A stretch of DNA of 64,000 bases from Actinomycetes bacterium (GCA_038252405.1 JBBSAJ010000003.1:72381-136380); one strand, 5' to 3'; numbered from the stretch's first letter, positions 18,889-45,415 are shown. Notes: generated by a model from the sequence alone, not told the origin. Made by a program: numbers and translations.

Positions 18889-18903
18889 ATGAGGGGAGTC
18901 CAG

Positions 18904-19521
18904 ATGCCATCGCAGCGAGCCGGCGTGGTCGCCACGCGAGCGCGGACCCGACCGACGGTGGCCGACGACCCGGTCGCCCGACTGACGGCCGCGCTGCCGA
19001 CCCTGCCGCGCAGCCACGTCAGCCTGATGGCGGAGATGCTGCGCGAGCTTACCCGGCGCGACCCGCAGGGGACTGTGCTCGAGCGCAGCGACGACCTGCA
19101 GCGGCTCGCCGAGCAGGCAGCCGACCGCATCGTCGATGCGGCTGATGTCTGGGTCGAGCACCTCGGCGAGTTCTACGACACCTCCGGGGTGGCCGAGCTG
19201 CTGGCCCCGGCCGGCGAGAGGATCAGCCGGCAGGCGGTCCACAAGCGCAAGGGGCTGCTGGCGCTGACGACTGGGGACGGCAAGACCGTGTACCCGGCGT
19301 TCCAGTTCCGCGCTCGGCGCCCGGCGCCCGGGCTGGCCGAGGTGCTGGCCCTGCTGCCCGAACGGCTGGTGTCCGCGTGGACGGTCGCGTCGTGGCTGCG
19401 CACTCCGGATGCCGACCTGGACGGCCAGGCGCCGATCGACGTGCTGTTCGAGTCCGGCCCAGAGGGCCGCGCCGCGGTGCGCACCGCCGCCCGGGACTGG
19501 GCGGCCGCCCTCAGCCGATGA
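18904..19521 (+). CDS. Antitoxin, Xre/MbcA/ParS-like
   Basis: ISRQAVHKR, YPAFQF, WLRTPDADLDGQAPIDVL; RBS GAGGGGAG; ATGA overlap with the RES gene. Confidence 0.8.
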   Translation: MPSQRAGVVATRARTRPTVADDPVARLTAALPTLPRSHVSLMAEMLRELTRRDPQGTVLERSDDLQRLAEQAADRIVDAADVWVEHLGEFYDTSGVAELLAPAGERISRQAVHKRKGLLALTTGDGKTVYPAFQFRARRPAPGLAEVLALLPERLVSAWTVASWLRTPDADLDGQAPIDVLFESGPEGRAAVRTAARDWAAALSR

Positions 19522-20150
19522 GCCTGGGACCGCCGCCGGCCGACCTGACGGGGTTCCCCCTGCGACCATCGAGGCGCGCCCCGCGGACGCTGTACCGGCT
19601 GTACTGGCATCGCAACCGAGCGGGCGCGCTGAACTCGGCCTGGAACTTCACCAGCGACCCTCCGGGGGCCAACCGCTTCGACCTGCCGGCCCCCGCCGGC
19701 ACCTGCTACTGGTCGGACGTCGCCTACGGCGCGTTCGTGGAGGTCTTCCGCGGGCTGCGGGTGATCGACCCGTCGGACGTCGACCGGCGCCGGTTGTTCG
19801 TCGCCACCCCGCCGGGCCTGCGCCTGGCCGACACCACGGCCCCGCGTGCCTACTCCTTCGGCGTCACCGTCGAGCTGCCCGCCGTCACGCCGTACGACCT
19901 GCCGCAGCAGTGGGCGACACGGCTGGCCAGCCTGGGCGTGGACGGGCTGGTCGCGCTGTGCCGGCACGACCCCAGCGGGCACGCCCGCACCGTTGCGATC
20001 TTCGGGCGGGCCGGCACGCCCGTCCGCCGCGCCCGATGGCGAGTCCGGCGCACCAGGATGGACCGCGATCCGACGCTGACGGCGGACCTGCGCCGGCTCG
20101 GCGTGCGGACGGTCCCCATCCCGTTCAGCGTGCCGACCGTGCGACCGTAG
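19518..20150 (+). CDS. RES-domain toxin (NAD+ phosphorylase family)
   Basis: LYRL...NRFDLPAPAGTCYW...AFVE...PYDLPQQWA...RHDP. Confidence 0.82.
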   Translation: MSLGPPPADLTGFPLRPSRRAPRTLYRLYWHRNRAGALNSAWNFTSDPPGANRFDLPAPAGTCYWSDVAYGAFVEVFRGLRVIDPSDVDRRRLFVATPPGLRLADTTAPRAYSFGVTVELPAVTPYDLPQQWATRLASLGVDGLVALCRHDPSGHARTVAIFGRAGTPVRRARWRVRRTRMDRDPTLTADLRRLGVRTVPIPFSVPTVRP

Positions 20151-25496: not shown

Positions 25497-26213
25497 GTGA
25501 GCAGCAAGCGGCGCGGCGACGAGGGCACGGCCGAGACGGCTGACCTGAGGGACACCGTGCGGGAGATCCCCGACGGTCCCCCCGACGAGTCCGGCCTGAC
25601 CCCGCGGCAGCGCCGCGTGCTCGAGGTGATCAAGGACGCCGTGGAGCGCCGTGGCTACCCGCCGTCGATGCGCGAGATCGGCAAGGCGGTCGGGCTCACC
25701 TCGCCGTCCTCGGTGGCCCACCAGCTGCACACGCTGGAGCGCAAGGGGTTCATCCGCCGCGACCCGAACCGGCCGCGAGCCATCGAGGTGGTCGCCCCCG
25801 ACAGCGTCGACGAGACCGGCAGCGGCGACGCGCGCCCGGCGCCGTCCTACGTGCCGATCCTCGGCCGGATCGCCGCGGGCGGACCCATCCTGGCCGAGGA
25901 GGCGGTGGAGGACGTCTTCCCGCTGCCCCGCCAGCTCGTCGGCGACGGCACCCTGTTCCTGCTTCGGGTGGTCGGCGACTCGATGGTCGACGCGGCGATC
26001 TGCGACGGCGACTGGGTGGTGGTGCGCCAGCAGCCCACCGCCGACAACGGCGACATCGTGGCTGCCATGCTCGACGGCGAGGCGACGGTCAAGACGTTCA
26101 AGCGCAAGGACGGCCACCTGTGGCTGCTGCCGCACAACCCGGCCTACTCCCCCATCGACGGCGACTACGCCACGATCCTGGGCAAGGTCACTGCGGTGCT
26201 GCGCCGGATCTGA
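25497..26213 (+). CDS. lexA: SOS repressor LexA
   Basis: [14 protein letters not shown] cleavage site, GDSM (Ser), ATVK (Lys); GTG start after GGAGG. Confidence 0.97.
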
Positions 26214-26426
26214 GCGGCCTGGTGGGAGACCGCCGCAAGGCATCTCGCGAGGTCGGTACTCGCCCCCAGTGAGCGCTGCATCACTGACGGCGAGCACTGT
26301 TTCCGAGAGGTCGCCGAGACGGCGTACGGCCCCCGAACCGGGGGGCTTGCGAACTGACGGGGGGCACGGCACGCTGCCAGGATTCCGGTCCGGACCCGGA
26401 AGCGGCGCGGGAGGGACGGAGCCACG

Positions 26427-29400
26427 GTGGTCGTCGACGCATCCGAGCAGGTGGTCGACCGCCCGCCGAGCCTGGTCGAGGACAGCGCCTCGGAGCGGCT
26501 GAAGCCCTACGTGCCGCGGCTGGCCGTCGACTGGCTGCGCCACCACCCGGAACGCACCTACCAGGAGGTCGAGGGCAGCCTCGCCTTCGTCGACATCTCC
26601 GGCTTCACCAAGCTGACCGAGCGCCTGGCCCGCAAGGGCAAAGTCGGCGCGGAGGAGATGAGCGACACCCTCAACGCCACCTTCGCAGCACTGCTGGAGG
26701 TGGCCTACCACGACGGCGCCGGCCTGGTGAAGTGGGGCGGCGACGCCGTGCTGCTGCTGTTCGACGGTCCGCTGCACGCCAAGCGCGCCGCTCGCGCCGC
26801 CTACCGCATGCGGGCCACCATGAGAACGATCGGTCGGCTGCGGACCAGCGCCGGCCAGGTCAGCTTGCGCATGTCGGTGGGTATCCACAGCGGTACGTTC
26901 CACTTCTTCCTGGTGGGCGACCCGGCCTACCACCGCGAGCTCATCGTCTCCGGCCCCGCGGCGTCCATGACTGCGGACATGGAGGCCACCGCGGACGCCG
27001 GCGAGATCGGCCTCTCCCCTGCGACCGCAGCGCAGCTCGATCCGCGCTGCGTGGGGCAGCCCAAGGGTGCGGCACTCCTGCTGCGCGGCGAACCGGGCAT
27101 CCCGATCCTCGGGGTCCCGCCCGGGAAAGAGGTGCACGACCTGGACCTGGCCGGAATCCTGCCGGTGGCCATCCGCGAACACCTGCTGGCCCAGCCCGGC
27201 GAGGCGGAGCACCGCACAGTCGCGGTCGCCTTCGTACAGTTCTCCGGGACCGACGCGCTGCTCGAGCGGGAGGGCCCGCAGGCGCTGGCCGACGCGCTGC
27301 ACGAGGTGATGGCCAACGTCCAGCAGGCGACCGCCAGCCACGGCGTCACCTTCTTCGAGACCGACATCAACCGCGACGGCGGCAAGATCATGCTCACCGC
27401 CGGCGCCCCGGTCAGCCGCGGCCACGAAGAGGACCGGATGCTGCGGGCGGCCCGGCTGGTCATCGAGCGGGCCGGCACCCTGCCGCTACGGATCGGCGTC
27501 AACCGCGGGCCGGTGTTCTCCGGCGACTTCGGGCCGTTCTTCCGCCGCACCTATTCGGTCAAGGGTGACGCCATCAACCTGGCGGCCCGGGTGATGGGCA
27601 AGGCCGCAGCGGGCGAGGTGCTGGCCACCCAGGCCGTGCTCGACCGGGCCCGGACCTCGTTCGCCACCGAACCGCTACCCCCGTTCCTGGTCAAGGGCAA
27701 GTCCCAGCCGGTGCACGCCCGCCGGGTCGGGCCCGTGGTCGCGGATGTCCAGCAGCCAGCTGGCTTCGGTGACAGAGAGCTGCCACTGGTCGGGCGGGAT
27801 GCGGAGCTGGCCGTGCTCACCGCGGCCATCGACGACGCGCGCCAGCGCCGCGGTCGGCTGGTCGAGCTGATCGGTGAGCCGGGGATCGGCAAGTCCCGGC
27901 TGGTGGCCGAGCTGCGCTCCCTCGCCGACGACGTCGACGTGCTGTTCACGACGTGCGAGGAGTACGAGTCGACCACGCCCTACTTCCCGTTCCGGGCGCT
28001 GCTGCGCAGCCTGCTGGGGCTGTCCCGGGACGTGCCCCCCGAGATTGCCTACCGCAGGCTGCACCAGCGGGTGGCCGTGAACACCCCCGACCTGGTGCCC
28101 TGGCTGCCCCTTGTCGGCATCCCGCTCGACGTCGCCGTCCCCGAGACCGAGGAGACCCGACGGCTCGACCCCCGCTTCCGCAAGGCGCGGGTCGAGGAGG
28201 TCACCACCGAGCTGCTGGAGCTGCTGCTGCCCACGCCGACGCTGCTCGTCTTCGACGACGTCCATCTCATGGACGACGCCAGCGTCGACCTGGTTCGGCA
28301 CCTCGTCGCGGGTGTCGCGCAGCGACCGTGGATGGTGCTCACCACCCGGCGTGACAATCAGCCGGACGGCTACGCGGCCGAGCCGGGACGGGCCACCGAG
28401 GTCCGCCCGCAACCGCTCGACCCAGCGGCGGCGCTGGCCCTGGTGTCCGTGTCCACCGAGCACGAACCGCTGCCGCCGCACGAGATGCAGGCCCTGGCTC
28501 GACGAGCCGGCGGGAACCCCCTGTTCCTGCGGGGGCTGGTGCTCGCCGCCCAGCAGACCGGCTCGATCGACGGGCTGCCCGACTCCGTCGAGGACCTCAT
28601 CACTGCGCAGATCGACCGGCTGACGCCGAGTGAGCGCACCCTGCTGCGATACGCCTCGGTCCTCGGCGCGACCTTCACGACCACCCAGCTCGAGGCGATG
28701 CTCGACGGCGAGCCGGTGACGGTCGACGCCCAGGCCCTGCGGCGGCTACAGGCATTCCTGGTGCCAGCGGGGGCCGACCGGTACGGGTTCCGGCACGCGC
28801 TGATCCGTGACACCGCCTACGAGGGCCTCCCGTACCGACAGCGGCGCCGGCTGCACGACCGCGTAGGGACGACGCTGGAGGCCGCCGCCGATACCCCAGA
28901 GGACCAGTCGGAGCTGTTGTCCCTGCACTTCTTCCACGCCGGGCGATCGGACAAGGCGTGGCACTACTCGCGCGTCGCCGGCGAGCGCGCCGCCGCCAAG
29001 TACGCCTACGTGGAGGCCGCCGAGCTGTACGCCCGAGCGGTCGAGGCCGCCCGCGAAGTGCCCGGCCTACCCGGCTCCGAGCTCGCTTTGGCGCACGAGT
29101 CCCTCGGCAACGCACGGTTTCGGATCGGCGCCCTGCCCGGTGCCCGGACCGCCTTCCGACAGGCCAGGGGCCTGGTCCCCGACGACCCGGTGCGGACGGC
29201 CGACCTGCTTCGCAAGGAGGCCGAGGTCGACCAGCGGCTGAATCAGCTCACCTCGGCGCTGCGAGCGCTCTCCCGAGCGATGAGGCTGCTCGAGCAGGGT
29301 GACCCGGGAGACGTCGCCGTCCTCGCCGAGCGCAGCCGCCTCGAGGGGTTCTACGCCGTCGTCCGCCAAAACCAGGGCCGCTATCGCGAGTCGCTGCGAT

Positions 29401-30314
29401 GGGGACGGCGGGCCGAGCTCACCGCCCTAGCGGCCGGCGACCGGCGGGCACTCGCCGACGCGTACGAGGCACTGCACGGAGCGTCGTCGATGCTCGGTGT
29501 CGAGCAGGACCAGCCATACGGGGAGCTGGCTCTGGCCCTGTACGAGGAGCTCGACGACCGCGCCGAGCAGTCCAAGGCGCTCAACAACTTGGCCGTGCTC
29601 GCCTGGCTGGAGGGCCGCGGGACGGACTCGGTGGACATGTTCCGGCGGGCGGAGACGGCAGCGGCCGAGGCCGGCGACACCCTCGGGGCGGCCTCATCGC
29701 GCTACAACGTGGGCGACGTGCTGCTGCGCATGGGGCGCGTCGCCGAGGCCGAAGAGGCACTGGCCGGGCTGCTGACGGTGTTCCGCGGGCTCGGTGCCGA
29801 GGACTTCCACGCGACCACGCTGCGGGTGCGCGGGCTCGCCCAGGTGCACCGGGGGGAGCTCGATGCCGGCCATGGCCTGCTGGTGCAGGCGCGCGGGGCC
29901 CTCGAGCTGCTCGGTCTGTCCGCCGAGGTGCTCGAAACGGATGCCGCCCTGGCGGAGGCCCTGATCGCCTCCGGCTCCCCCGACGCCGCGGCCACCGTCG
30001 CCGAGACCGCGGTGCAGCGCGCCGACTCCCTCGGCGCCGGCTACCTGCTTCCGACGCTGCACCGGCTTAGGGGCGCTGCCCTGCTGGACGCACGACGGCT
30101 GGACGAGGGCGAGGCCTGCCTACGGCTAGCGCTGCGGGCCTGCGACACGCACGGCGAGGAGATCGAGCGCGGCTTCATCCTCGCCGAGCTGGCTCGGGCG
30201 GCGAGGGAGCGCGCCGACGAGGCCCTGGCCAGCGCGCTCAGGGCCGACAGCGAGCGGGCCCTGGCCAGTCTGGGTTTCGTCGGTAGCGCCCGCTACCCCC
30301 GGTCAGGGCCGTAG
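26427..30314 (+). CDS. Tandem class III nucleotide cyclase - STAND AAA ATPase - TPR protein
   Basis: FVDISGFT and VKWGGDA (domain 1); YSVKGDAINLAAR (domain 2); GEPGIGKS, LVFDDVH, GNPLF, FRHALIRD; helical repeats. Confidence 0.9.
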   Translation: MVVDASEQVVDRPPSLVEDSASERLKPYVPRLAVDWLRHHPERTYQEVEGSLAFVDISGFTKLTERLARKGKVGAEEMSDTLNATFAALLEVAYHDGAGLVKWGGDAVLLLFDGPLHAKRAARAAYRMRATMRTIGRLRTSAGQVSLRMSVGIHSGTFHFFLVGDPAYHRELIVSGPAASMTADMEATADAGEIGLSPATAAQLDPRCVGQPKGAALLLRGEPGIPILGVPPGKEVHDLDLAGILPVAIREHLLAQPGEAEHRTVAVAFVQFSGTDALLEREGPQALADALHEVMANVQQATASHGVTFFETDINRDGGKIMLTAGAPVSRGHEEDRMLRAARLVIERAGTLPLRIGVNRGPVFSGDFGPFFRRTYSVKGDAINLAARVMGKAAAGEVLATQAVLDRARTSFATEPLPPFLVKGKSQPVHARRVGPVVADVQQPAGFGDRELPLVGRDAELAVLTAAIDDARQRRGRLVELIGEPGIGKSRLVAELRSLADDVDVLFTTCEEYESTTPYFPFRALLRSLLGLSRDVPPEIAYRRLHQRVAVNTPDLVPWLPLVGIPLDVAVPETEETRRLDPRFRKARVEEVTTELLELLLPTPTLLVFDDVHLMDDASVDLVRHLVAGVAQRPWMVLTTRRDNQPDGYAAEPGRATEVRPQPLDPAAALALVSVSTEHEPLPPHEMQALARRAGGNPLFLRGLVLAAQQTGSIDGLPDSVEDLITAQIDRLTPSERTLLRYASVLGATFTTTQLEAMLDGEPVTVDAQALRRLQAFLVPAGADRYGFRHALIRDTAYEGLPYRQRRRLHDRVGTTLEAAADTPEDQSELLSLHFFHAGRSDKAWHYSRVAGERAAAKYAYVEAAELYARAVEAAREVPGLPGSELALAHESLGNARFRIGALPGARTAFRQARGLVPDDPVRTADLLRKEAEVDQRLNQLTSALRALSRAMRLLEQGDPGDVAVLAERSRLEGFYAVVRQNQGRYRESLRWGRRAELTALAAGDRRALADAYEALHGASSMLGVEQDQPYGELALALYEELDDRAEQSKALNNLAVLAWLEGRGTDSVDMFRRAETAAAEAGDTLGAASSRYNVGDVLLRMGRVAEAEEALAGLLTVFRGLGAEDFHATTLRVRGLAQVHRGELDAGHGLLVQARGALELLGLSAEVLETDAALAEALIASGSPDAAATVAETAVQRADSLGAGYLLPTLHRLRGAALLDARRLDEGEACLRLALRACDTHGEEIERGFILAELARAARERADEALASALRADSERALASLGFVGSARYPRSGP

Positions 30315-32075
30315 CCGCGGGTCCTCCACGAACAGCACCGGCATCGTCAGCGCCCCCGTGAAGCGGTTGCCGGCTCGGGTGATCGCGTTGACGTCGACGC
30401 AGAACCCGGCTGCCTGAGCCTGGGAGGTGACGATCCGGCCGGTGGTCCAGCGGTTCCAGCTGGGCGCGCAAGCTGGCGCCTGGGCGAACGGCAGGTCACC
30501 TGTCGGGGTGTGGAGCGACACGTAGACCGGGTAGGAGGTGAACTCCTCCCGCCCCTCGTCGTTGCCCCAATAGTTGTACCGAGCGAAACGTGGTTCCTCG
30601 CTCAGGTCGGGATGCGGGCAAGCGGTGGCCGAGCACTGCCAGTCGATCCGGGCCGGCTTCAGCGGGCTGGACGGCGTCCCGAAGCCGTAGAGCGGGTTGC
30701 CCGACGAGTCCTTGAAGCTGCCAGAGAGCTGGACCTGGGTACCTGCGGAGCACGGGGTCGGGTCGGTGCCGCAGGCACTGACGAGGAGAGACACGGTGCC
30801 GTTCGCCCCGTTGCCCAGGTCCGCTGTGGCCCGGCCGGGCACGTTGAGCAGCGACGGATCGATGGCAACACCAGGAGTTCCAGGAGCCTGCGTCACGAAT
30901 GCGTTCACGTCGACGGACGTGGTCGCATCGGGGCTAAGACCCGGTGCGCTGGCGATCAGCGTGACGCCGAGGCCGACACCGGAGTAGGTGACCTCACTGA
31001 TCGTCGTCGCGGGGTCGAGCTGCTGCTGGGACCGCGTGCTCAGGACGCCAACGGTCGGGTCCCCGGCATGCCCGGTGGCGGTGAGGGTCACCGCTCCCGC
31101 GTAGGGACTCGCGTTGTCGTAGGCATCGCGGGCCGTGACCTGGACATCGAACGACTTACCAGTGCTGAGGAGGCTCAGCGTGTCAGGGTGCAGGGGATCG
31201 CTGACCGCGTCGATGGTGAGGTGGGTGGGTAAACCGGGGATGACCGTGAATGACGTTGTCTGAGTCAGGCTGGTACTCGCCACTGTGACTGTGTAGGTGT
31301 ACACGCCCGGACGGGTCGGGGCGTCGAGCGCCAGCGTCACTTTCCCGTCGACGGTCGACGCGGACCTCTGGGACCCGCCGGCGACGTGGACCTGGCCGTT
31401 CACCGTCACCGGGTCGACCAGGTTGCCGTAGGTGTCCGTCACGGTAGCGGTCGCGTTGAAGGCGGTGCCTGCGCCGACGCTGCCGGTCGGACCGGTCACC
31501 GACAGGTGGGCCGGCGGGCCGGGCCTCACCGTGACCTGCGGGTCGGTGCCGCTCTGACTGAACCGCTGACCTTCGCTCCAGCCGTCCGAGTTCTTGGCCG
31601 CAGCAGCCCAGGTCCACCGGCCTGGCGCAGTTGGGGTGGCGGTGATCGAGAACGTCAGCGTCCGCCCGGCTGCGACCTTCTTTGCCCCTCGGTCATCCGG
31701 AGTGTTCACCTGGACGAGCGTGCTGCCAGGGCTGCCACAGCCTGTGGGCGAGTCCGTCGAGCAGGTGGCCAGCGAGTAAGCCCAGCCGCTCGGTGAGGTC
31801 GTGGTCCCCAACGTGACGTTGGTGAATCCCGCCGGCACGACGACCTGTGCCGAACCCATGCTGTTCGAGCTCGTCGTCGCGTTGGTCAGGGTCAGCGTGA
31901 ACGTCGTCGGCTGGCCGACCGTCGCCTGGACCGGGCCGATCGCCACCGTGAAGCTGGACGACTTGGCCGATCCCCAGGCGAGCGCCGCGGTCGCCGGCAG
32001 CACCGACACCACCAGGGCGCCGGCCAGCAGCGCCGCGCCGGACCAGAGCGAACGAGACCGCGGACGGCGTTTCAT
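30303..32075 (-). CDS. Secreted Thr/Ser-rich multi-beta-sandwich (Ig-like) protein
   Basis: Signal peptide ending ATAALA; repeated DxYGN/DAYDN Ig-like motifs; Cys-rich C-terminal domain. Confidence 0.7.
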   Translation of the reverse strand: MKRRPRSRSLWSGAALLAGALVVSVLPATAALAWGSAKSSSFTVAIGPVQATVGQPTTFTLTLTNATTSSNSMGSAQVVVPAGFTNVTLGTTTSPSGWAYSLATCSTDSPTGCGSPGSTLVQVNTPDDRGAKKVAAGRTLTFSITATPTAPGRWTWAAAAKNSDGWSEGQRFSQSGTDPQVTVRPGPPAHLSVTGPTGSVGAGTAFNATATVTDTYGNLVDPVTVNGQVHVAGGSQRSASTVDGKVTLALDAPTRPGVYTYTVTVASTSLTQTTSFTVIPGLPTHLTIDAVSDPLHPDTLSLLSTGKSFDVQVTARDAYDNASPYAGAVTLTATGHAGDPTVGVLSTRSQQQLDPATTISEVTYSGVGLGVTLIASAPGLSPDATTSVDVNAFVTQAPGTPGVAIDPSLLNVPGRATADLGNGANGTVSLLVSACGTDPTPCSAGTQVQLSGSFKDSSGNPLYGFGTPSSPLKPARIDWQCSATACPHPDLSEEPRFARYNYWGNDEGREEFTSYPVYVSLHTPTGDLPFAQAPACAPSWNRWTTGRIVTSQAQAAGFCVDVNAITRAGNRFTGALTMPVLFVEDPRLRP

Positions 32076-32252
32076 CGGGCCCCCAGGGCAAAGTCGTGAA
32101 TTGGGGCAGCATGTCGGCTGCTCGGTGAAGCGTCAACGATCTTGGCGATCAGGGGTCGGATCGGACGGCTTTTCGGCCCAATCCTGTCGAAACTGTCACG
32201 TTGCGGTCACGCTGCGCTCGTGTCCCGTCGACGTGCGGCTCCCAGGGGCACG

Positions 32253-32675
32253 TCAGGACCGGTTGGCCGTCTCAGCCGCGCGCAGCCGGGCGCACAGCAC
32301 CGCCAGCAGCCCCTTGCATGCGGCCGGGTCGTCAAGGACGGGGGCGAAGGCCAGCGGCGAGATGGCCGCCACGCCGGTGCCGTCCGCCCCCGCGCGGACC
32401 GTCGCCGACCGGGGCTGCCGGTCGATGAGCGCGATCTCGCCGAGGTAGGCGCCGGCGGACAGGGTGGCCCTGCGGACGCCGTTGACCTCGACGTCGGCGG
32501 TCCCGTCGGTGATCAGGACGAAGCTGGCCCCTGACTCCCCCTGCTCGGTGATCAAGGCCCCGGCCTCGAAGGTCATCCGGGTGGCACGCTGGGCCAGCTC
32601 CTGCCGGGTGGCATCGGACAACCCTGCGAACAGGTCGATCTCGGCCAGCCGGTGCGCGATCTGGGTGCCCTGCAT
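32253..32675 (-). CDS. Stand-alone cyclic-nucleotide-binding domain protein
   Basis: LFAGLS...QGESG...GAYLGEIALIDRQPRSATVRA phosphate-binding cassette; no HTH. Confidence 0.9.
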   Translation of the reverse strand: MQGTQIAHRLAEIDLFAGLSDATRQELAQRATRMTFEAGALITEQGESGASFVLITDGTADVEVNGVRRATLSAGAYLGEIALIDRQPRSATVRAGADGTGVAAISPLAFAPVLDDPAACKGLLAVLCARLRAAETANRS

Positions 32676-32799
32676 CTTCTGCGTCCTCTCGTCGTCTGGC
32701 CGCTAAGGCTAGAGGGACGGGCGCCGCGGCGGGAGGGTTCTCGATTGCTCACACAGGGCGCGGTGGCCGTCGGTAGGGTGCACCACCTGGGAGGTGATC

Positions 32800-35700
32800 A
32801 TGGCCGAGAGCGCAGTCCGTTCGCAGCCACCAACGAATTCCGCCGGTCGCGGCCGGGTGACCGACCGCACCGTCCTGCTCGTCGCGTCCTTCGGCGCGTT
32901 CCTGGCCTTCCTCGACGCGACGATCGTCAACGTTGCGTTCCCCAGCATCCGGGCGTCCTTCGACGGGTCCTCAATCTCCAGCCTGTCCTGGATCCTCAAC
33001 GCCTACAACATCGTGTTCGCCGCCTTCTTGGTGATCTCCGGACGGCTCGCCGACCTGGCCGGGCGTCGCCGGGCCTTTCTCTCCGGTGTGCTCGTCTTCA
33101 CGGCGGCGTCCGCGATGTGCGCCATGGCCGGCTCGGTAGGCCTCCTCGTCGGTGCCCGGATGATCCAGGCGCTGGGCGCCGCCATCCTGGTCCCGGCGTC
33201 GCTCGCCCTGGTCGTCGAGGCCTTCCCCGCCCACCGCCGCGCACACGCGGTCGGGCTGTGGGGCGCGTCGGCGGCGCTGGCCGCGGGGCTCGGGCCGCCG
33301 ATCGGCGGCGCCCTCGTGGAAGCCGGCGGCTGGCGCTGGGCGTTCCTGGTCAACCTGCCGTTCGGCCTGGCCGCCCTGTGGGCCGGGCGCCGGCTGCTCG
33401 TCGAGAGCCGCGCCCCGGGGCGGCGTCGACTGCCCGACCTCAAGGGTGCCGTGCTCTCCGCGGCGATGCTGGGCCTGCTCACGCTCGGCATCGTCAAGGG
33501 CAACGACTGGGGCTGGACCAGCTGGCAGGTCCTCGGCTGCTTTGCTGGCGCCGCCGTCCTGTTCGCCGGTTTCGTGGTCAGCTCGCGCCGGCACCGCTCA
33601 CCGCTGCTCGACCCGGCCCTGCTGCGGATCCGGTCGTTCGCCGTGGGCAACCTTGCGATGATCATCGCGGGCATGGGCTTCTACGCCTACCTGCTGACGA
33701 ACATCCTGTGGTTGCAGTACGTCTGGGGCTACTCGGTACTGCGGGCCGGCCTGGCCCTCGTGCCGGCCGCGCTGGTCGCCGCCGTGCTGGCGGCCGTGCT
33801 GGGCCCGGTGGCCGAGAAGCGTGGGTACCGCCTGGTGATCATCCCGGGTGCCCTCGTCTGGGCGGTGGCGTACCTCTGGTACGCCACCCGGGTGGGGCCG
33901 ACCCCCGACTTCCTCGGCCAGTGGCTGCCGGGGCAGCTGCTCAGCGGGCTCGGGGTGGGGGCCACCCTGCCGGTCCTGGGCAGCGCGTCCCTGGCTGCCG
34001 TCCCCGGGGGTCGGTTCGCCACGGCCTCGGCGGTCAACTCCAGCGCCCGGCAGATCGGAGCCGTCCTCGGCATCGCGATCCTGGTCGTCCTCATCGGCAC
34101 GCCGACCCCGACGACCGCGGTCACGGACTTCCGGCGCGGCTGGGTGTTCTCCTCACTCTGCTTCGTGGCCGTGGCCATCGTGGCGGCTCTCGTGGGTCGG
34201 GTTCGCGCGGAGCACGTCGAGGCAGCGGACGCCGACGAGCACCAGCCGGCCCTCGTCCGGCTGCCGGACGTGCCGCACCCGCCCGCTGCCGGGGGGGCAG
34301 CGACGTCCGCGCCGTTGGTAGCCGCGCCGCTGTTCGCCCGGCTGCCGGAGCGGGCCCGGACCCGGCTGGAGCAGGAAGCCGAACCGGTCGAGGTCGCGGC
34401 CGGGGACTGGCTGTTCCACGCCGGCGATCCGGCCGAGGACCTGTTCGTCGTCCGCTCCGGCCGGCTCGAGGTGGTCATCGACGGCGAGCCGGTGCGCCAG
34501 CTCGGATCCGGAGCGGTGCTCGGTGAGCTGGCCCTGCTCACCGGCGGGGTGCGCTCGGCCTCGGTGCGAGCCCGTCGGGACAGCCACCTGCTTCGCGTAT
34601 CACGGGCGGCCTTCGAGGACGCCGTCGGCGACGATGCGTCGGCGCTGCGGGCGGTCGCGGAGGTGCTCGCGGGCCAGCTGAAGGACGCGCGCCCAGCGGC
34701 TGCCGCCGGCTCCCCGCAACCGCGGCTGGTCGCGGTCGTCGCCCTCGGGCCGGGTGCGCCGGTGGACGCGGTGGCCGACGTCCTGGTGAGCGGGCTGCGG
34801 CGCAGCCTCAGGGTCGGGGCCCCGGGTCGGGTCGGCCCGGACGGCCTGGAACGAGCGGAGCGTGACCACGACCGGGTCGTGCTGGTGGCCGAGGAGCAGG
34901 ACGACGACTGGTGGCGGCTGTGCGTCCGGCAGGCCGACCATCTGGTGCTGGTGGCCGCGGCCGGTGCCGAGGCACCCGCTGGGCCACCGTTGGGGCGCAC
35001 CCAGGCCGATCTCGTGCTGGTCGGCGCCCGGCCGGCGCCGGAACGCGTGCGAGCCTGGGCACAGACCATGGACCCGTGGCAGATCACCGTGACCGGCACC
35101 GACGACCTGCCCCTGGCACTGCGCCCGTTGACCGCACGCATCGCCGGCCGCTCGGTCGGGCTGGTGCTCGCCGGCGGCGGCGCCAGGGCCTTCGCGCACA
35201 TCGGCGTCCTGCAGGAGCTGGCCCGGGCCGGCGTCCACGTCGACCGGGTCGCCGGTTCCAGCCAGGGCTCGATCATCGCTGCGCTGCACGCGATGGGGAA
35301 CGACCCGGACACGATCCATGACGCCTGCTACGAGGAGTTCGTGCGGGCCCGGCCGTTCAGCGACTACACCGTGCCGACCGTCTCTTTGGCCAAGGGGCGT
35401 CGCGCCGAGAAGGCGATGCGGCGGCACTTCGGCGACGCCCGGATCGAGGAGCTGCCCCGCCAGTTCCGTTGCGCCAGCACCGACCTGCAGTCGCGCTCGC
35501 GGTTCACCCACCGCAGTGGCACGCTGGCCGACGCCGTCCTGGCTTCGATCGCGCTCCCCGTGCTGTTCCCCCCGAGACGGCACGACGGCCGGTTGCTCGC
35601 GGACGGCGGCATCCTGGACAACCTGCCGGTGACCTTGCTCACCGAACGGGACGAGGGGCCGCTGGTCGCCGTCAACATCGGCATGGGCGCCGGAGGTGAC

Positions 35701-35964
35701 CGGCCACGGCCGGAGGGACCGGGAGCCGCCACAGCGCCGCACCACGTCCGGGTGCCGTCACTCGGCGAGACCCTGCTGCGGACCATGTTCATCGGCAGCG
35801 GCGGCGCGGTGGAGTCGGCGCGGGCCGCCGGGGCGGTCGTCGTCACCCCGGCGGCCATGGGCGTGGGGCTGCTGGAGTTCCACCAGCTCGACCGGATGGT
35901 CGAGTCGGGTCGGGCGGCCGGCCGCGCGCTGCTCGACCAGGCCGGGCACCTGCTCAGCCAGTGA
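32800..35964 (+). CDS. DHA2 MFS transporter - cNMP-binding - patatin phospholipase fusion (Rv3239c/Rv3728-like)
   Basis: LDATIVNVAFP MFS start; GELALLTGGVRSASVRA; GGGARA, GSSQG, DGG patatin motifs. Confidence 0.92.
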   Translation: MAESAVRSQPPTNSAGRGRVTDRTVLLVASFGAFLAFLDATIVNVAFPSIRASFDGSSISSLSWILNAYNIVFAAFLVISGRLADLAGRRRAFLSGVLVFTAASAMCAMAGSVGLLVGARMIQALGAAILVPASLALVVEAFPAHRRAHAVGLWGASAALAAGLGPPIGGALVEAGGWRWAFLVNLPFGLAALWAGRRLLVESRAPGRRRLPDLKGAVLSAAMLGLLTLGIVKGNDWGWTSWQVLGCFAGAAVLFAGFVVSSRRHRSPLLDPALLRIRSFAVGNLAMIIAGMGFYAYLLTNILWLQYVWGYSVLRAGLALVPAALVAAVLAAVLGPVAEKRGYRLVIIPGALVWAVAYLWYATRVGPTPDFLGQWLPGQLLSGLGVGATLPVLGSASLAAVPGGRFATASAVNSSARQIGAVLGIAILVVLIGTPTPTTAVTDFRRGWVFSSLCFVAVAIVAALVGRVRAEHVEAADADEHQPALVRLPDVPHPPAAGGAATSAPLVAAPLFARLPERARTRLEQEAEPVEVAAGDWLFHAGDPAEDLFVVRSGRLEVVIDGEPVRQLGSGAVLGELALLTGGVRSASVRARRDSHLLRVSRAAFEDAVGDDASALRAVAEVLAGQLKDARPAAAAGSPQPRLVAVVALGPGAPVDAVADVLVSGLRRSLRVGAPGRVGPDGLERAERDHDRVVLVAEEQDDDWWRLCVRQADHLVLVAAAGAEAPAGPPLGRTQADLVLVGARPAPERVRAWAQTMDPWQITVTGTDDLPLALRPLTARIAGRSVGLVLAGGGARAFAHIGVLQELARAGVHVDRVAGSSQGSIIAALHAMGNDPDTIHDACYEEFVRARPFSDYTVPTVSLAKGRRAEKAMRRHFGDARIEELPRQFRCASTDLQSRSRFTHRSGTLADAVLASIALPVLFPPRRHDGRLLADGGILDNLPVTLLTERDEGPLVAVNIGMGAGGDRPRPEGPGAATAPHHVRVPSLGETLLRTMFIGSGGAVESARAAGAVVVTPAAMGVGLLEFHQLDRMVESGRAAGRALLDQAGHLLSQ

Positions 35965-36006: not shown

Positions 36007-38079
36007 TCAGGTCGCGGCGTACTCGTCGGACTCGACGGCCAGGCCGGAGCTGAGCAGGGCCGGCACCCGCTCCTCGGGCACCCCCCACTTGGCCAGCTGC
36101 TCGCGGACCTTCGCCTCCGCCTCGGCGGACTGGTCGGCCAGCAGCCGGCGCTGCGCCCAGGCCAGCTCACGCTGGCGCAGCGCCCGCTCCATGCGCTCCA
36201 TCCTGGCGTCGTCCAGCGGCAGGTCGTAGGCGAGCGACGCGAACCGGGCGAGGTCCTTGCGGTAGTCGTGCCCCTTGGCCACGAACTTGCCGGGGATGAC
36301 GTTCATGGCGTTCTTCACGTCGATCAGCGTGATCAGGAACGTGGTGTACGGCCGCCAGGCGACCTCCGGCGGCACCCCGGGCTCCCTGCCCTCGCGGGGG
36401 CCGAGCCAGTCGGGGGCCTGCACCGCCAGCGGGAACCAGAACTTCGGCATCGGGTCGTTGTGGTGCGTGAGCAGGAAGAAGCGGGCCCGCTGCCTGGCCT
36501 CCTCCGGCAGCGCCAGGTACTCCTCGTAGGAGTCCACCTCGACGACCTCGCCGTGCGGGTCCCACACTGACGGCTCGGACAGCCAGCGCTGCCGCCACTT
36601 GGTGTTCGCGGGAGTGCCGAGGAACAGGCCCCGCTCGAGGCCGACACGGGAGAAACCCAGGGCGCCCTCCTCCTGGAAAACGTCCAGGGAGGTCTGCGCA
36701 CCGAGGCTCTCACCGAAGATCGCCAGCCGCGGACGGCGGTCCTCCGGGATCGCGTGCAGCCGCCACTTCAGCGCGTGCAGGAAGGCGTTGTTCTGGTCGA
36801 TCCCGATGCCGACCCGGCCCAGGGACAGCGGCGAGGGGCGCAGCGAGTACTGCATGGCCACGCAGGCGACGTCACCGCGGGTCAGGTACTCCAGCGCCTC
36901 GGCCGTGACGTAGTTGAGGTAGCCGGTCCCGGTCGGCGACATGAACACGATCAGCTGGCGCTCGAAGGCGCCCAGCGCCTCCAGCTCGCGCATCGCCAGG
37001 TCGGCCCGGCCGCTGGTGGTGTCGTTGGACTCCAGTCCCACGAAAACCCGGATGGGAGCCATCGCCGGCTCGTCCATGACCTCGGTGATCTCGGCCGGGG
37101 TCAGCGCCATGTTGACGAAGCGGCGTCCCTCGCGGCCGACGTCCTGCCAGGAGACGGAGCTGCGCGGGCCACCGCTGACGAACTCCGAGGTCGGCGGGGT
37201 GCGGTAGGCGGCCTCGACGGCGTCCCCACCGTGCTCGGCCTTGTGGAAGACCTTCTGCAGCCCCGCATAGCCGGCGCCGGCCAGCAGCCCGGAAGCGGCC
37301 AGGTGGCCCATCGGCTTGGCGATCAGCTCGGCCCGCGGGGAGAGCGCCTGCACCACCGCGCCCACGCCGTCGGCGAACAGCCGCTCCCCCTCCGCGAGCA
37401 CGAACATGCCGGCCGTGACACCGGTGCCGACGAGCAGCGCGCGGCCGGTCGACACCGACGAGCTCTCCTTCAAGGACAGGCCCGAAGCGTCCGTCTCGAC
37501 CCCGGCCCGCTCCATCGCCTTGCGCAGGGCGCGGTACTCGTAGGCGGCCAGTGCCCCGCCGACGGGGAGCGCGACCGGCACCTGCCGCCACCAGTCGCGG
37601 CCGCCCTCGCCGGAGAGCCGGTCGAAGGCGGCGTCCAGTCCCACCAGGATCGACCCGGACAGCCCGCCGACGGCGATCCGCCAGCTGGAGGTGCGGCCCC
37701 AGGCCCGGGTGATCCGCTCGTCCTTGCGCTGGGCCAGCACCCGCTGGGCCAGCACACCGGCGCCCATCGCCGCGACGTTGCCCACCAGGACGACGTTGCG
37801 GTGGGCGATCCGCTCGGTCCGGTCGGTCGGCCGGGCGCCGGTGACCTTGAAGGCCGCGCTCTCGATCAGCGACTGGGCCAGCGCGGTCAAGGCGTAGTTG
37901 AGGGTGACCGAGACGCCGGTGATGATCGCCTGGTCGGCGGTCGCGCGCGGCAGCAGCCCTCGGCTGAACGACCGTCCGACGCTGGTGGACGCGGCCAGCA
38001 CGCCCGCCCGCTCGGGCAGCTGCATCCCCCGCTCGGTAGCGTTCAGCATCCGGCTGGCCAGCTGCACCACGTTCGCCAT
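36007..38079 (-). CDS. Membrane alpha/beta hydrolase (Abhydrolase_9 family)
   Basis: GREGRRFV, PIRVFVG, PTGTGYLN, MQYS, GESLG, HNDP, GHDY. Confidence 0.85.
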   Translation of the reverse strand: MANVVQLASRMLNATERGMQLPERAGVLAASTSVGRSFSRGLLPRATADQAIITGVSVTLNYALTALAQSLIESAAFKVTGARPTDRTERIAHRNVVLVGNVAAMGAGVLAQRVLAQRKDERITRAWGRTSSWRIAVGGLSGSILVGLDAAFDRLSGEGGRDWWRQVPVALPVGGALAAYEYRALRKAMERAGVETDASGLSLKESSSVSTGRALLVGTGVTAGMFVLAEGERLFADGVGAVVQALSPRAELIAKPMGHLAASGLLAGAGYAGLQKVFHKAEHGGDAVEAAYRTPPTSEFVSGGPRSSVSWQDVGREGRRFVNMALTPAEITEVMDEPAMAPIRVFVGLESNDTTSGRADLAMRELEALGAFERQLIVFMSPTGTGYLNYVTAEALEYLTRGDVACVAMQYSLRPSPLSLGRVGIGIDQNNAFLHALKWRLHAIPEDRRPRLAIFGESLGAQTSLDVFQEEGALGFSRVGLERGLFLGTPANTKWRQRWLSEPSVWDPHGEVVEVDSYEEYLALPEEARQRARFFLLTHHNDPMPKFWFPLAVQAPDWLGPREGREPGVPPEVAWRPYTTFLITLIDVKNAMNVIPGKFVAKGHDYRKDLARFASLAYDLPLDDARMERMERALRQRELAWAQRRLLADQSAEAEAKVREQLAKWGVPEERVPALLSSGLAVESDEYAAT

Positions 38080-38200
38080 GGTCTCGCCTCTCCCATGCGT
38101 TCCGTCGCCCCCACCCTGCCCGATCCCGACTGTCTCGGGAAGCGGGTTCCCCGGCACCGGGGCTTTCGCCCCAGCCGGGCGACGCGCATAGGCTCACCCG

Positions 38201-38836
38201 GTGACTGTTCGCCGCACCGCGCCCCTGCTGACCTCGGCCGCCGTCCTCGTCGTGCTGCTCGCCGGCTGTAGCGGGGGCAGCAGCCCGAGCTCCGCGGCGT
38301 CGGCCGCCTCCAGCAGCCCGGCCGCCTCGGCCAGCGAGTCGAGCGCGTCGCCCACGGCGAGCCCGAGCGACACGGCGAGCCCGTCGGCGTCAGGGGCCGG
38401 CTCGACGGCCTGCACGACGGCGCAGCTCGCTGTGGCGCTGGGCCAGACCGACTCGGCGGCCGGCAACCAGTACACGCCGATCGTGTTCACCAACCGGGGC
38501 GCCGCCGCCTGCACGATGGCCGGCTTCCCCGGGGTGGCGTTCGTGAACACGGCCGGCCAGCAGGTCGGCCCGGCCGCCGTCCGGGAGGCCCAGCCGGTGC
38601 AGACCGTGCAGCTGCCCGTCGGGGGCTCCGCGCACGCGATCATGGACTTCCACGACGCCGGGCTGTACTCGGCGTCCGCCTGCCAGGCGGCGGCAGCGAC
38701 GTACCTGCAGGTCTACCCGCCGAACCAGACAGCTGCGGTCCGGCTCACGTCCAGCCAGCAGGTGTGCACCCAGCCGATGAGCAGCCCGCAGCTGACCGTC
38801 CGCCCGGTGCGCCCCGGGGTCAGCTCGACCCCCTGA
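38201..38836 (+). CDS. DUF4232 lipoprotein
   Basis: Lipobox LLAGC, Ser/Ala linker, CTTAQL...FTN...CTMAGFPGV...VYPP. Confidence 0.85.
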   Translation: MTVRRTAPLLTSAAVLVVLLAGCSGGSSPSSAASAASSSPAASASESSASPTASPSDTASPSASGAGSTACTTAQLAVALGQTDSAAGNQYTPIVFTNRGAAACTMAGFPGVAFVNTAGQQVGPAAVREAQPVQTVQLPVGGSAHAIMDFHDAGLYSASACQAAAATYLQVYPPNQTAAVRLTSSQQVCTQPMSSPQLTVRPVRPGVSSTP

Positions 38837-40775
38837 GCGCGCGCAGCGAGCGCCGGACGACCGCCGGGTCGTCGGTGCGCCAGAACGGCGGCAGCGAACG
38901 CAGCAGGAACCCTGCGTAGCGCGCGGTGGCCAGCCGGGAGTCGAGCACGGCCACCACGCCGCGGTCCTGCGCCGAGCGGATCAGCCGGCCGGACCCCTGC
39001 GCCAGCAGCAGCGCCGCGTGCGCGGCGCTGACCGCCATGAACCCGGCCGCCCCGGCGGCGTCCTGCCGGGCCCTGACCAGCGGGTCGTCGGGCCGCGGGA
39101 ACGGGATGCGGTCGATGACCACCAGCTGGCAGGCGTGGCCGGGGACGTCGACGCCCTGCCACAACGACAAGGTGCCGAACAGGCAGCTGGCCGGGTCCGC
39201 GGCGAAGCGCCGGACCAGCTCGGCCGTGGCGTCGTCGCCCTGGCACCACAGGGTCAGCTCGGGCAGCCGTGCGCGCAGCTCCTCGGCGGCCTGCTCGGCG
39301 GCGCGCAGCGAGGAGAACAGCCCCAGGGTGCGACCGCCCGCGGCCTCGACCAGGCCGGCCAGCTCGTCGAGGAACGCCTCGGACGGCCCGTCGCGACCGG
39401 GCGGCGGCAGCTGCCGGGCCACGTAGAGGATGCCCTGCCTGGGGTAGTCGAACGGCGAGCCGACATCCAGCCCGGCCCACGCGGGGGGCGCCTCACCGGG
39501 CGCGCCCCGGGTCAGCCCGAGCGCGTCGGCCACCGGGTCGAAGCTGCCGCCGAGCTCGAGGGTGGCCGAGGTCAGGATGACGGTCACGCCCTTGAACAGC
39601 TGCTCGCGCAGCAGGTCCGCGATGGACAGCGGCGCGCGGTACAGAGCCGGGGGACGCCGCTCGGAGTGGGTGACCCACACGACGTCGTGCGCGCCCGCCT
39701 CGAGCACCCGTCCCGCGATCTCGTGCACCTCCTCGACGGCAGCCCTGGCCCGGACCCGGCCGGCGTCGGCGTCCTCCTCGCCGGCGTCCTTGCCGCTCTT
39801 CCCGCTGCTCTCGGCGAGCGCCGCGTGGCCGACGTCCCGTACCGCGACCAGCGCGTCGAAGAGCAGGCCGCGCAGGCCCACCAGCCGCCCGGGCTCGGCC
39901 TCGCGCAGACCCTCCTCGAGCGCGGCCGCGGCAGCGAGCAGGTTCTCGTGGGTGGTCGCCTCGACGTGCCGGCGGATCCGGCGCGCGGCTCGCTCGACCA
40001 GACCGGCCGTGAGCTCGTCGGTGACCGCTCCGGTGGCCCGGTCGACCAGCTCGTGGCCCTCGTCGACCACGACGACGTCGTGCTCGGGCAGCAGCGGGAT
40101 CCCGGACATCGCGTCGATGGCCAGCATGGCGTGGTTGGTGACCACGACGTCGGCGCGGCGGGCCTGCTCGCGGGCCGCCTCGGAGAAGCACTCGGCGGCG
40201 TAGCGGCACCGGGCTGCGCCCAGGCACTCGTGACTGGTGGCGGACAGCGACCGCCAGGCCCGCTCCATCGGCGCCGGCACCAGCTCGTCGCGGTCACCGG
40301 TCTCCGTGCTGTCCGCCCACGCCCGGATCCGCCGGACGTCGCGGCCCAGCGGCGTGGTCGGGGCGGGCGCGAACAGCATGGCGTCGTCGTCCTCGGCCGG
40401 GCCCTCGTTCAGCCGGTGCAGGCACAGGTAGTGGTGCCGGCCCTTGAGGATCGCGAACTTCGGACGCCGCTCGAGCAGCGGCTCGAGAGCGTCGACCACG
40501 CGCGGCAGGTCACGCTCGACCAGCTGCCGCTGCAGCGCGATGGTCGCCGTGGCGACGATGACCGGATGCTCGCCGGCCGCGCTGTGCAGGACCGCCGGGA
40601 CGAGATAGGCCAGGCTCTTGCCGGTCCCGGTGCCGGCCTGGACGAGCAGGTGCTCGTGCGCGTCGATCGCGGCGGCGACGGCCTCGGCCATCCGCTGCTG
40701 CCCCACGCGTGACTGGCCGCCGACCGCGTGGACGGCGGCGTCCAGGGCGCTGGCCAGGTCCACCACGCCGTCCAT
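38820..40775 (-). CDS. dinG: ATP-dependent DNA helicase DinG
   Basis: QAGTGTGKS, DEGH, TSATL, WQGVDVPG, QGSGRLIR. Confidence 0.93.
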   Translation of the reverse strand: MDGVVDLASALDAAVHAVGGQSRVGQQRMAEAVAAAIDAHEHLLVQAGTGTGKSLAYLVPAVLHSAAGEHPVIVATATIALQRQLVERDLPRVVDALEPLLERRPKFAILKGRHHYLCLHRLNEGPAEDDDAMLFAPAPTTPLGRDVRRIRAWADSTETGDRDELVPAPMERAWRSLSATSHECLGAARCRYAAECFSEAAREQARRADVVVTNHAMLAIDAMSGIPLLPEHDVVVVDEGHELVDRATGAVTDELTAGLVERAARRIRRHVEATTHENLLAAAAALEEGLREAEPGRLVGLRGLLFDALVAVRDVGHAALAESSGKSGKDAGEEDADAGRVRARAAVEEVHEIAGRVLEAGAHDVVWVTHSERRPPALYRAPLSIADLLREQLFKGVTVILTSATLELGGSFDPVADALGLTRGAPGEAPPAWAGLDVGSPFDYPRQGILYVARQLPPPGRDGPSEAFLDELAGLVEAAGGRTLGLFSSLRAAEQAAEELRARLPELTLWCQGDDATAELVRRFAADPASCLFGTLSLWQGVDVPGHACQLVVIDRIPFPRPDDPLVRARQDAAGAAGFMAVSAAHAALLLAQGSGRLIRSAQDRGVVAVLDSRLATARYAGFLLRSLPPFWRTDDPAVVRRSLRALRGSS

Positions 40776-44981: not shown

Positions 44982-45415
44982 CGTGCTTCCAGGGTCGCAC
45001 GGACCGCTCACCGATGGCACGCCGATATCCGCCGACCGGCCGGTGACCCGATGGACGGGCAGCCGGCCCGGGCCTACAGTGCGCTCGCCATGTTCCCCTC
45101 GATGCCGCCGACCCCGCGCCGGGCGGCCCGCGCTGCCTCGTCCTCACCCGGGCGCTCCTCTTCGACCGGGTCGCCGCCGCGATCCTGCTGCCGCCGTGGA
45201 TCTTCCCCATCGGTGGTCGCCTTCCACGGCAGCTGGCACGGGCCACAGCTGGTGCTGAGCAGCCCGGACAACTCGTTCACCGAGCTGTTCACCCCGGCGG
45301 GAGCCATCCGGATGACGACCTCCACCGCTGATGCCGGGGGCACGACGGTGACGTTGAGCCACGGCTCCGCCGCCGGGTTCACGCAGGCGTGCCGGGCACT
45401 CGCCGCCGGTCGGGC

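Follow-up and report, generated by a model that had tools for sequence, protein, structure and literature searches.

A soluble-type adenylyl cyclase and neighbouring cyclic-nucleotide receivers as a probable signalling module of actinomycetes

In a 64,000-nucleotide stretch of DNA from an uncultured actinomycete (GCA_038252405.1, JBBSAJ010000003.1:72381-136380; in the following called the window, with positions counted from its first letter), we identified four adjacent genes at 26427-35964, which probably constitute a physiological cyclic AMP (cAMP) signalling module of actinomycetes. They encode a cyclase of 1295 amino acids (26427-30314, + strand), a secreted cysteine-rich protein of 590 amino acids (SEC; 30303-32075, - strand), a stand-alone cyclic nucleotide monophosphate (cNMP)-binding protein of 140 amino acids (32253-32675, - strand) and a protein of 1056 amino acids, in which a major facilitator superfamily (MFS) transporter, a cNMP-binding domain and a patatin lipase are fused (32794-35964, + strand). 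An earlier reading of the window, in the following called the sequence-only reading, had described four genes between lexA and dinG as a cluster and not an operon. According to Pfam and the translations all four genes are real, every motif quoted at that time is present in the translated products and the orientation (+ - - +) bears out the description as a cluster, but the interval holds two further genes, of the Abhydrolase_9 and DUF4232 families. In view of the E-values of the matches and the conservation in relatives, chance is excluded as an explanation of the four-gene observation.

The cyclase, which has neither a membrane segment nor a signal sequence, matches the Pfam families Guanylate_cyc (E 1.6e-23, in two stretches), AAA_16 (2.7e-22) and TPR_12 (6.8e-12), while NB-ARC stays under its cut-off of 23.5 bits with a score of 19. 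The cyclase-STAND-TPR architecture assigned to it in the sequence-only reading is borne out by these matches, except that there are two tandem cyclase domains and not one: C1 (about residues 45-205) and C2 (about residues 257-440) precede a STAND P-loop NTPase (residues 453 to about 800) and a TPR region (about residues 800-1295). The best match among PDB sequences to the first 458 residues was human ADCY10, the soluble adenylyl cyclase (sAC), with an E-value of 1.9e-15 and both halves aligned. An AlphaFold model of residues 1-450 (pLDDT 93, pTM 0.91) led to the same enzyme, since the best 24 Foldseek matches listed were all human sAC (TM 0.75-0.81 over 462-489 columns), followed by C1-C2 pairs of membrane cyclases. 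Based on the model, the protein is a predicted sAC-like C1-C2 pseudo-heterodimer with tandem unlike domains in one chain.

The alignment to 4clf/4oya assigns D56, K102, D106, S377, N384 and R388 of the cyclase to D47, K95, D99, T405, N412 and R416 of sAC, respectively. C1 keeps both metal aspartates (D56, D106) and lacks the Asn/Arg pair, and C2 carries a Gln in place of the first Asp and keeps K320, S377 (Thr in sAC), N384 and R388. Four of these residues (D56, D106, N384, R388) do not vary among 40 cyclase homologues, in which K102 and K320 reach a conservation of at least 90%; in a set of 35 cyclase sequences K102 is invariant as well. The Walker A motif (GEPGIGKS) and the Walker B region (LLVFDDVH) of the NTPase are both intact; all of the 35 sequences share G486, G488 and D616, and conservation of K489 and S490 is at least 90%. 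As judged from its residues, the enzyme looks catalytically complete and of the sAC type, and its product would be cAMP.

Sequences of this kind have precedents. A 2004 paper by Kobayashi, Buck and Levin is said to have dealt with sAC-like cyclases in bacteria. Mycobacterial proteins of the Rv0386, Rv1358 and Rv2488c type have the order cyclase-ATPase-TPR-HTH (helix-turn-helix), with one cyclase domain and a LuxR-type DNA-binding end. Compared by description, the cyclase resembles the Rv0386 type in being an actinobacterial class III cyclase fused to a STAND/AAA ATPase with helical repeats, and differs in its two cyclase domains and in the absence of an HTH, which Pfam did not find in it. The likeness to sAC (ADCY10) extends to the two unlike cyclase domains in one chain, the STAND-type P-loop region that follows them and the conserved metal aspartates, lysine, asparagine and arginine. 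Unlike sAC, the cyclase is bacterial, shorter (1295 residues) and ends in a clear TPR region; identity is about 21%, T405 is replaced by Ser, and the conserved gene neighbours described below have no known counterpart at the animal gene. Another difference concerns the bicarbonate site of human sAC, which we take to consist of Lys95 and Arg176, numbers that are consistent with the alignment used here. Since the position of Arg176 aligns with an Ala, an assignment made by pairwise profile alignment only, we make no claim of bicarbonate regulation for the cyclase. Full-length human sAC (sACfl) comprises C1, C2 and a predicted STAND P-loop domain, and a 2025 biochemical study of the full-length enzyme identified, in its accessible parts, no sACfl-specific regulator (PMC12802110).

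Both candidate receivers of the cyclic nucleotide carry intact binding cassettes, as the sequence-only reading had it, and these are conserved in relatives. The 140-residue protein matches Pfam cNMP_binding with an E-value of 2.5e-11 (cassette GEIALIDRQPRSA), and its residues G79, E80, R89 and A91 are invariant in 7 homologues. The fusion protein matches MFS_1 (7.8e-48; residues 28-470), cNMP_binding (1.9e-19, cassette GELALLTGGVRSA; residues 515-640) and, beyond a linker, Patatin (7.3e-37; residues 787-950). The Gly-Glu and Arg-Ser-Ala of the phosphate-binding cassette are present in the two cNMP domains and conserved in relatives, and a PDB search places these domains closest to those of PKG and of PKA R subunits (E 1e-15 to 1e-18). 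The proposed composition of the fusion, MFS, cNMP and patatin with complete motifs, is confirmed by Pfam and by the invariance in 29 homologues: GGGAR, GSSQG and DGG are all present, and G821, S823, G825, D937, G938, G939 and the cassette residues are invariant in these sequences, whose mean column identity is 68%. The MFS part exceeds the cut-off of the NCBIfam family TIGR00711 (DHA2 efflux; 248.5 vs 230.2 bits), and a PDB search places the patatin part nearest to PlpD (5fqu, E 2.8e-25). A search at E <= 1e-20 returned at least 1500 homologues, and the 120 matches listed have, with few exceptions, about 1050 residues; close homologues carry names of metagenome-assembled genomes (MAGs) such as 'Candidatus Nanopelagicales', and several are labelled 'NTE family protein' by JGI. 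The protein is mostly single-copy, and because its database version has 1054 residues, translation probably starts at an ATG at 32800.

In joining a membrane anchor, a cNMP domain and a patatin Ser-Asp dyad in one protein, the fusion is similar to the NTE family (PNPLA6/NTE, PNPLA7, Drosophila SWS); it departs from that family in having one cNMP domain and in being anchored by an entire DHA2 transporter instead of a single helix. The same MFS-cNMP-esterase fusion architecture is found in mycobacterial Rv3239c and Rv3728. Compared with these two proteins, to which we liken the fusion by described architecture alone, the conserved neighbouring cyclase seen here occurs in other actinomycete lineages. 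A 2024 review lists Rv3728, in the part accessible to us, as a hypothetical membrane lipase/efflux protein (PMC10865251).

In the mechanism we propose, the two unlike cyclase domains would form a single active site, to which C1 would contribute the two metal-binding aspartates and C2 the base-recognising lysine as well as the transition-state asparagine and arginine. The STAND NTPase and the TPR region would probably switch the cyclase on upon binding of a ligand or partner, and the cAMP formed would be read by the neighbouring receivers, among which the 140-residue protein, consisting of a cNMP domain only, may serve as a buffer, adaptor or feedback element. The fusion would place a DHA2 MFS transporter of the 14-helix type, a cytoplasmic cNMP domain and an NTE-like patatin lipase in one chain, so that cAMP binding, by analogy with PKA/EPAC-type cNMP domains and NTE-family enzymes, could release the lipase and/or gate the transporter and alter membrane (lyso)phospholipid turnover or export. 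The module is open, given that the same cyclase family stands elsewhere beside MFS-cNMP transporters that lack a lipase, free patatins, putative phosphodiesterases and a glutaminase-cNMP enzyme.

The association of cyclase and fusion gene was analysed in 80 loci around fusion homologues, 51 of which extend for 9 kb or more to either side. When cyclase homologues with at least 35% identity over at least 500 residues are counted, 13 of the 80 loci and 12 of the 51 with full flanks have one no farther than 10 kb from the fusion gene; these loci span three species of Nocardioides, Actinotalea lenta, a Mycobacteriales MAG and further MAGs. None of the 80 loci has lexA, nrdJ or a dinG-like gene near the fusion gene, which indicates that the module genes stay together in differing surroundings. 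At the genome level, a cyclase homologue at E <= 1e-60 is present in 70 of the 80 (38/40 and 32/40). The sequence-only reading had named a lack of conserved linkage as the finding that would speak against its proposal; since a recurrent neighbourhood exists, this objection falls away, and a cyclase that feeds neighbouring cNMP receivers with a membrane or lipase output fits these data.

A more even sample consisted of 400 genomes of the class, which were searched for an intact cNMP-patatin part (E <= 1e-50) and for the cyclase (E <= 1e-100). Together with the other genome tallies of this analysis, those of the sample include the unpublished genomes G017, G025, G034, G039 and G341, which touch only the counts for genomes without fusion protein, G341 being one cyclase-only genome. 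The cNMP-patatin part was detected in 28 of the 400 genomes, with the cyclase present in 20 of these 28 and in 70 of the 372 genomes without fusion protein. Of the 20 genomes that hold both genes, 10 have the matches on one contig no more than 8 kb apart, 1 has them on one contig at a distance of 163 kb and 9 have them on different contigs, in at least 3 cases with both matches at contig ends. Some genomes overlap with the loci described above, and G474, G259 and G145 are new; the two new genomes with enough sequence show the same order of cyclase, opposite-strand gene (330-350 codons) and fusion gene. In large complete genomes of one family (G270, G406, G420) we found 1-2 copies of the fusion (38-48% identity) and no cyclase match at E <= 1e-100.

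A quick IQ-TREE phylogeny of 51 cyclases separates clade A (23 rows, support 100) from clade B (25 rows, support 98). A neighbouring fusion gene is seen for 10 of the 23 rows of clade A, spread over each of its three subclades, and for a single row of clade B. On the tree of the fusion protein (71 of 81 rows, 10 having been left out for want of a full-length gene call) at least nine changes have to be assumed for adjacency, which is itself often seen at early branches. The two trees agree where they can be compared: the fusion protein of locus L090 groups with those of L054 and L059, and the cyclases of the latter genomes (L096, L097) group with the cyclase of L090, which points to joint vertical descent. 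We read the adjacency as an arrangement that is probably old, was inherited vertically and was often broken up.

cNMP-domain genes are frequent around cyclase genes also where the fusion gene is not the neighbour. In the window's own genome, this cyclase has two of the five cNMP-binding genes in all at a distance of no more than 3 kb. In 40 loci around cyclases that do not adjoin a fusion gene or come from genomes without one, 33 cNMP-domain genes are found in 17 loci, corresponding to 61 per Mb over 537 kb, compared with a background of 2.5 per Mb in five whole genomes, i.e. an enrichment of about 25-fold. The receivers comprise small cNMP proteins, MFS-cNMP transporters without lipase and a glutaminase-STAS-cNMP enzyme. 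In L119 (4415-9702, - strand) the cyclase gene and a gene for a 550-residue MFS-cNMP protein overlap by 4 bp on the same strand and likely form a translationally coupled operon. In L092 (11885-14086) and L102 (15147-17303), a small cNMP protein, a MaoC-like protein (a dehydratase-fold label that rests on Pfam of the L092 copy) and a free patatin of 311-329 residues are encoded beside the cyclase, so that here the lipase output is a separate gene and not a fusion.

Homologues of the 140-residue protein itself are encoded near a cyclase or fusion gene in L036 (68% identity), L119 (55%), L041 (42%), L092 and L102 (36%) and L126 (33%). The gene is located directly upstream of the cyclase gene on the same strand in L092, L102 and L126, a position that fits a close functional tie and hence the role of buffer or adaptor suggested for this protein in the sequence-only reading, or one in feedback. 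A complex prediction of cyclase residues 460-1295 with cAMP and the 140-residue protein scored 0.00, which counts neither for nor against binding.

Candidates for signal removal accompany the genes as well. Clade-B loci often have two genes beside the cyclase, one for a Lactamase_B_2 protein and one for a metallophosphoesterase, whose products are putative phosphodiesterases. A 275-residue Lactamase_B_2 protein is encoded beside the fusion gene in 21 of the 80 loci (e.g. L014:13103-13939), mostly directly downstream and convergent; it matches the NCBIfam family 'cyclic nucleotide-degrading phosphodiesterase' over its full length with 63.7 bits, far under the cut-off of 400, so that a function as cyclic-nucleotide phosphodiesterase is a lead only. 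The window's genome has its own Lactamase_B_2 gene elsewhere (C9:50269-51081, 63% identity). Apart from this, a glutaminase-STAS-cNMP_binding fusion of 610 residues is encoded near a clade-B cyclase in L103 (4616-6448, + strand), and similar cNMP genes encoding 610 residues are present in L108, L127 and L129.

The secreted protein is the most constant neighbour of the cyclase. In the window the two genes are arranged tail-to-tail with 3' ends that overlap by 12 bp, and among 50 cyclase genes with a called downstream neighbour, 41 face a gene for a secreted protein in this way, at distances of -31 to +204 bp. Of these 41 proteins, 22 belong to the family of the window protein (group 0) and 19 to a second, cysteine-containing family of about 400-490 residues behind clade-B cyclases (L120:11773-13239, L129:11352-12539 and 17 others), for which no Pfam or NCBIfam family was found. 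The second family ends in a hydrophobic-x-D-x-[RK] motif, which by eye is like the C-terminal motif of the window protein; a profile comparison did not bear out common ancestry of the two families (hhalign E 0.12 over 33 columns).

Within the window, the gene of the secreted protein is taken as coding because the GC content at its third codon positions (GC3) is 0.85, which supports a real coding sequence; its overall GC content (0.68-0.70 at 30500-32000) is below that of its neighbours (0.72-0.76) owing to codons rich in Thr, Ser and Ala. The protein starts with a hydrophobic signal-like stretch, as judged by eye, and has no family in Pfam, NCBIfam or PADLOC and 11 homologues only among 5.8 billion proteins searched. 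In 22 sequences of the family C481, C486, C536, C559, D561 and D585 are invariant, all located in the C-terminal 190 residues. The AlphaFold model is all-beta (pLDDT 80), and Foldseek returned chains of Ig/macroglobulin-like domains (complement C3, the adhesin FdeC, the S-layer protein SbsB, PrgB). The protein is predicted to be a multi-domain beta-sandwich with a conserved cysteine-rich C-terminal domain. An identity beyond this was not assigned, as the Ig/macroglobulin-like chains are too generic and the atlas matches weak (DUF11 at 0.80, with the C-terminal part falling into unnamed clusters).

The locus can be compared with that of a congener of the source organism (G001, 95% complete). 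Its sequences flanking the module are 92-96% identical to the window, and three remnants of the module (L011, contig C63, 4514-5240), 77-85% identical to parts of window 26355-35510, match 26355-26666, 30152-30441 and 32846-32907. Three separate deletions have thus removed most of all four genes, and lexA (96% DNA identity) and the Abhydrolase_9 gene (89% protein identity) are kept. Elsewhere in the G001 genome neither the cyclase nor the fusion gene was found, and the fusion protein occurs in 2 of 11 family members only.

Several observations weigh against a dedicated module. The four genes do not form one operon, and the position of Arg176 of sAC aligns with an Ala. A cyclase is lacking nearby in 39 of the 51 fusion loci with full flanks, 10 of the 80 fusion-locus genomes have no cyclase match at E <= 1e-60, and 8 of the 28 fusion genomes of the even sample have none at E <= 1e-100. 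Members of the cyclase family are found three times as often as the fusion protein and also where it is missing, e.g. in G005, G008 and G010. Gene calls in the compared loci came from a simple heuristic caller based on GC3, which failed on L058 and L116; moreover, counts among kin are not independent, several genomes are part of both data sets and many are incomplete MAGs. Finally, the window's genome encodes four cyclases, five cNMP-binding proteins, two of them in this cluster, and three patatins, so that the three other cyclases make the cAMP source of the receivers non-unique. The sequence-only reading had proposed a self-contained system, which does not stand in view of the three further cyclase and three further cNMP-binding genes and the occurrence of the cyclase in genomes without fusion protein; the module is part of a small cAMP network and not closed.

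These observations could also be explained by loose synteny, i.e. a diffuse cAMP network in which an ancestral adjacency decays and any cyclase may feed the receivers without a specific cognate relation. Such an account gains from the frequent absence of adjacency, the additional cyclase and cNMP-binding genes, the mixed gene orientation, the wide distribution of the cyclase without fusion protein and trees that are compatible with one old arrangement and many losses. We nevertheless consider it possible but rather unlikely, since adjacency persists across lineages whose proteins are 43-60% identical and which bear names of three orders, since cNMP genes are enriched around cyclases even where no fusion gene adjoins, in varied arrangements including overlapping operons, and since G001 lost all four genes together by separate deletions.

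Two related ideas concern the secreted protein. One is that secreted protein, STAND cyclase, 140-residue protein and fusion form one conserved envelope circuit, in which the surface state or an invader would act through the STAND-TPR part and cAMP would switch lipase or transporter; we regard this as an unlikely, speculative extension of the proposed module. The other, more narrowly, is an envelope-sensing circuit with the secreted protein as partner of the cyclase, reporting or responding to the state of the cell surface, and the cyclase-fusion pair downstream. The tail-to-tail arrangement in 41 of 50 cases, the invariant cysteines and aspartates of the C-terminal domain and the loss together with the cyclase in G001 are in line with it, but a membrane segment or signal is missing from the cyclase, and few if any residues of the secreted protein are cytoplasmic, so that no direct contact is evident. 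In addition, the two secreted families are not demonstrably homologous, and convergent genes have no common promoter, so that their constant position may reflect old synteny alone. We therefore hold such a sensing role to be quite improbable.

Regarding defence, which the sequence-only reading had also considered, the module is similar to Pycsar in pairing a class III-like cyclase with a cNMP-domain effector, and PycTIR is among the PDB matches to the cNMP domain of the fusion (8jsj, E 2.3e-9). It differs from Pycsar in the lack of a family-level match, of a two-gene operon and in its sAC-type adenylyl-cyclase residues, core-gene context and vertical inheritance. With CBASS and its CapV effector the module shares the proposed activation of a patatin phospholipase by a nucleotide second messenger; unlike there, the patatin is fused to a transporter with predicted gating by a CAP/PKA-type cNMP domain, which CapV to our knowledge lacks, and no CD-NTase is encoded among the six locus proteins. 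For these six proteins PADLOC returned weak, domain-level matches only (PycC, 32.9 bits, E 1.1e-8; cNMP domain of Pycsar effectors, E 1.6e-15; CBASS 'Phospholipase' effector, E 1.6e-8) and no CD-NTase or other defence family. Anti-phage abortive infection, with the STAND-TPR part sensing a phage protein, a nucleotide alarm and a cNMP-gated patatin destroying the membrane on the model of Pycsar or CBASS-CapV, thus appears highly improbable: the STAND-TPR architecture, the patatin with a nucleotide-binding domain, the weak PADLOC matches and the patchy presence among close kin would suit it, but the fusion is highly conserved and mostly single-copy, its tree agrees with that of the cyclase, and the cyclase has the catalytic fold and residues of a sAC-type adenylyl cyclase. 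The neighbours are core genes, and the company met in related loci, with putative phosphodiesterases, a glutaminase-cNMP enzyme and MFS-cNMP transporters, is what physiological signalling would lead one to expect.

A mobile island was likewise considered and rejected, because neither a tRNA gene nor an integrase was found at the locus, nor any meaningful direct or inverted repeat flanking it, and the GC profile is unremarkable apart from the gene of the secreted protein. The window's DNA is GC-rich throughout (0.66-0.77) and comes from a genome of 2.8 Mb in 120 contigs, 92% complete. The module is set in the order nrdJ, nrdR, lexA, module, dinG-like helicase, PAS-GGDEF-EAL protein, hflX. The gene lexA (25590-26213, + strand; Pfam LexA_DNA_bind and Peptidase_S24) lies outside the module; its open reading frame (ORF) as listed, 415 residues, carries a 5' extension, with the LexA domains starting at residue 209. 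Downstream of the fusion gene follow the Abhydrolase_9 gene for a membrane alpha/beta hydrolase (36007-38157, - strand; PF10081, E 3.8e-55, and PF15420), which adjoins the fusion gene in only one of the 80 other loci (L034), and the DUF4232 gene (38201-38836, + strand; E 1.5e-30). At 38194-38836 two long ORFs overlap on opposite strands, and the DUF4232 gene is likely the real one because the ORF on the - strand has no family. The dinG-like helicase (38820-40775) is directly followed by the PAS-GGDEF-EAL gene (40809-43478, - strand; cyclic di-GMP turnover), which places a second nucleotide-messenger gene 5 kb from the cAMP module, and then by hflX (43590-45020). CRP-like sites (GTG-N8-CAC) are not enriched (33 matches vs 31.8 expected), and none is present in the 118-bp divergent intergenic region. 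Farther away, at 18889-20150 (+ strand), two overlapping genes of 210 codons each resemble a toxin-antitoxin pair, the first with a weak match to the Xre/MbcA/ParS antitoxin C-terminal domain (E 1.2e-4) and the second with a RES domain (E 1.1e-8).

Every enzyme of the module belongs to a known family, and its logic of cyclase, receivers and probable phosphodiesterases is that of ordinary second-messenger signalling. In the literature we searched, we found no account of a full-length sAC-type cyclase paired with an NTE-type MFS-lipase or with other cNMP receivers, nor of a near-constant tail-to-tail secreted partner. An uncharacterised family of secreted proteins emerges as the neighbour found most constantly beside these cyclases. 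Culturable and harmless relatives, namely several Nocardioides species (for example N. aestuarii JCM 12125, N. taihuensis and N. pocheonensis) and Actinotalea lenta, keep the gene order and would allow testing how the STAND/P-loop part of soluble-type adenylyl cyclases is regulated, what MFS-cNMP-esterase fusions do, and whether the cNMP domains of NTE-type lipases respond to cyclic nucleotide, a question that is still under study in animals according to the accessible parts of two sources (PMC12710771, PMC7103881). If the four proteins did form one envelope circuit, this would define the first cognate cyclase for an NTE-family enzyme, and the STAND region of soluble adenylyl cyclase could be studied in a bacterial model that is amenable to genetics.

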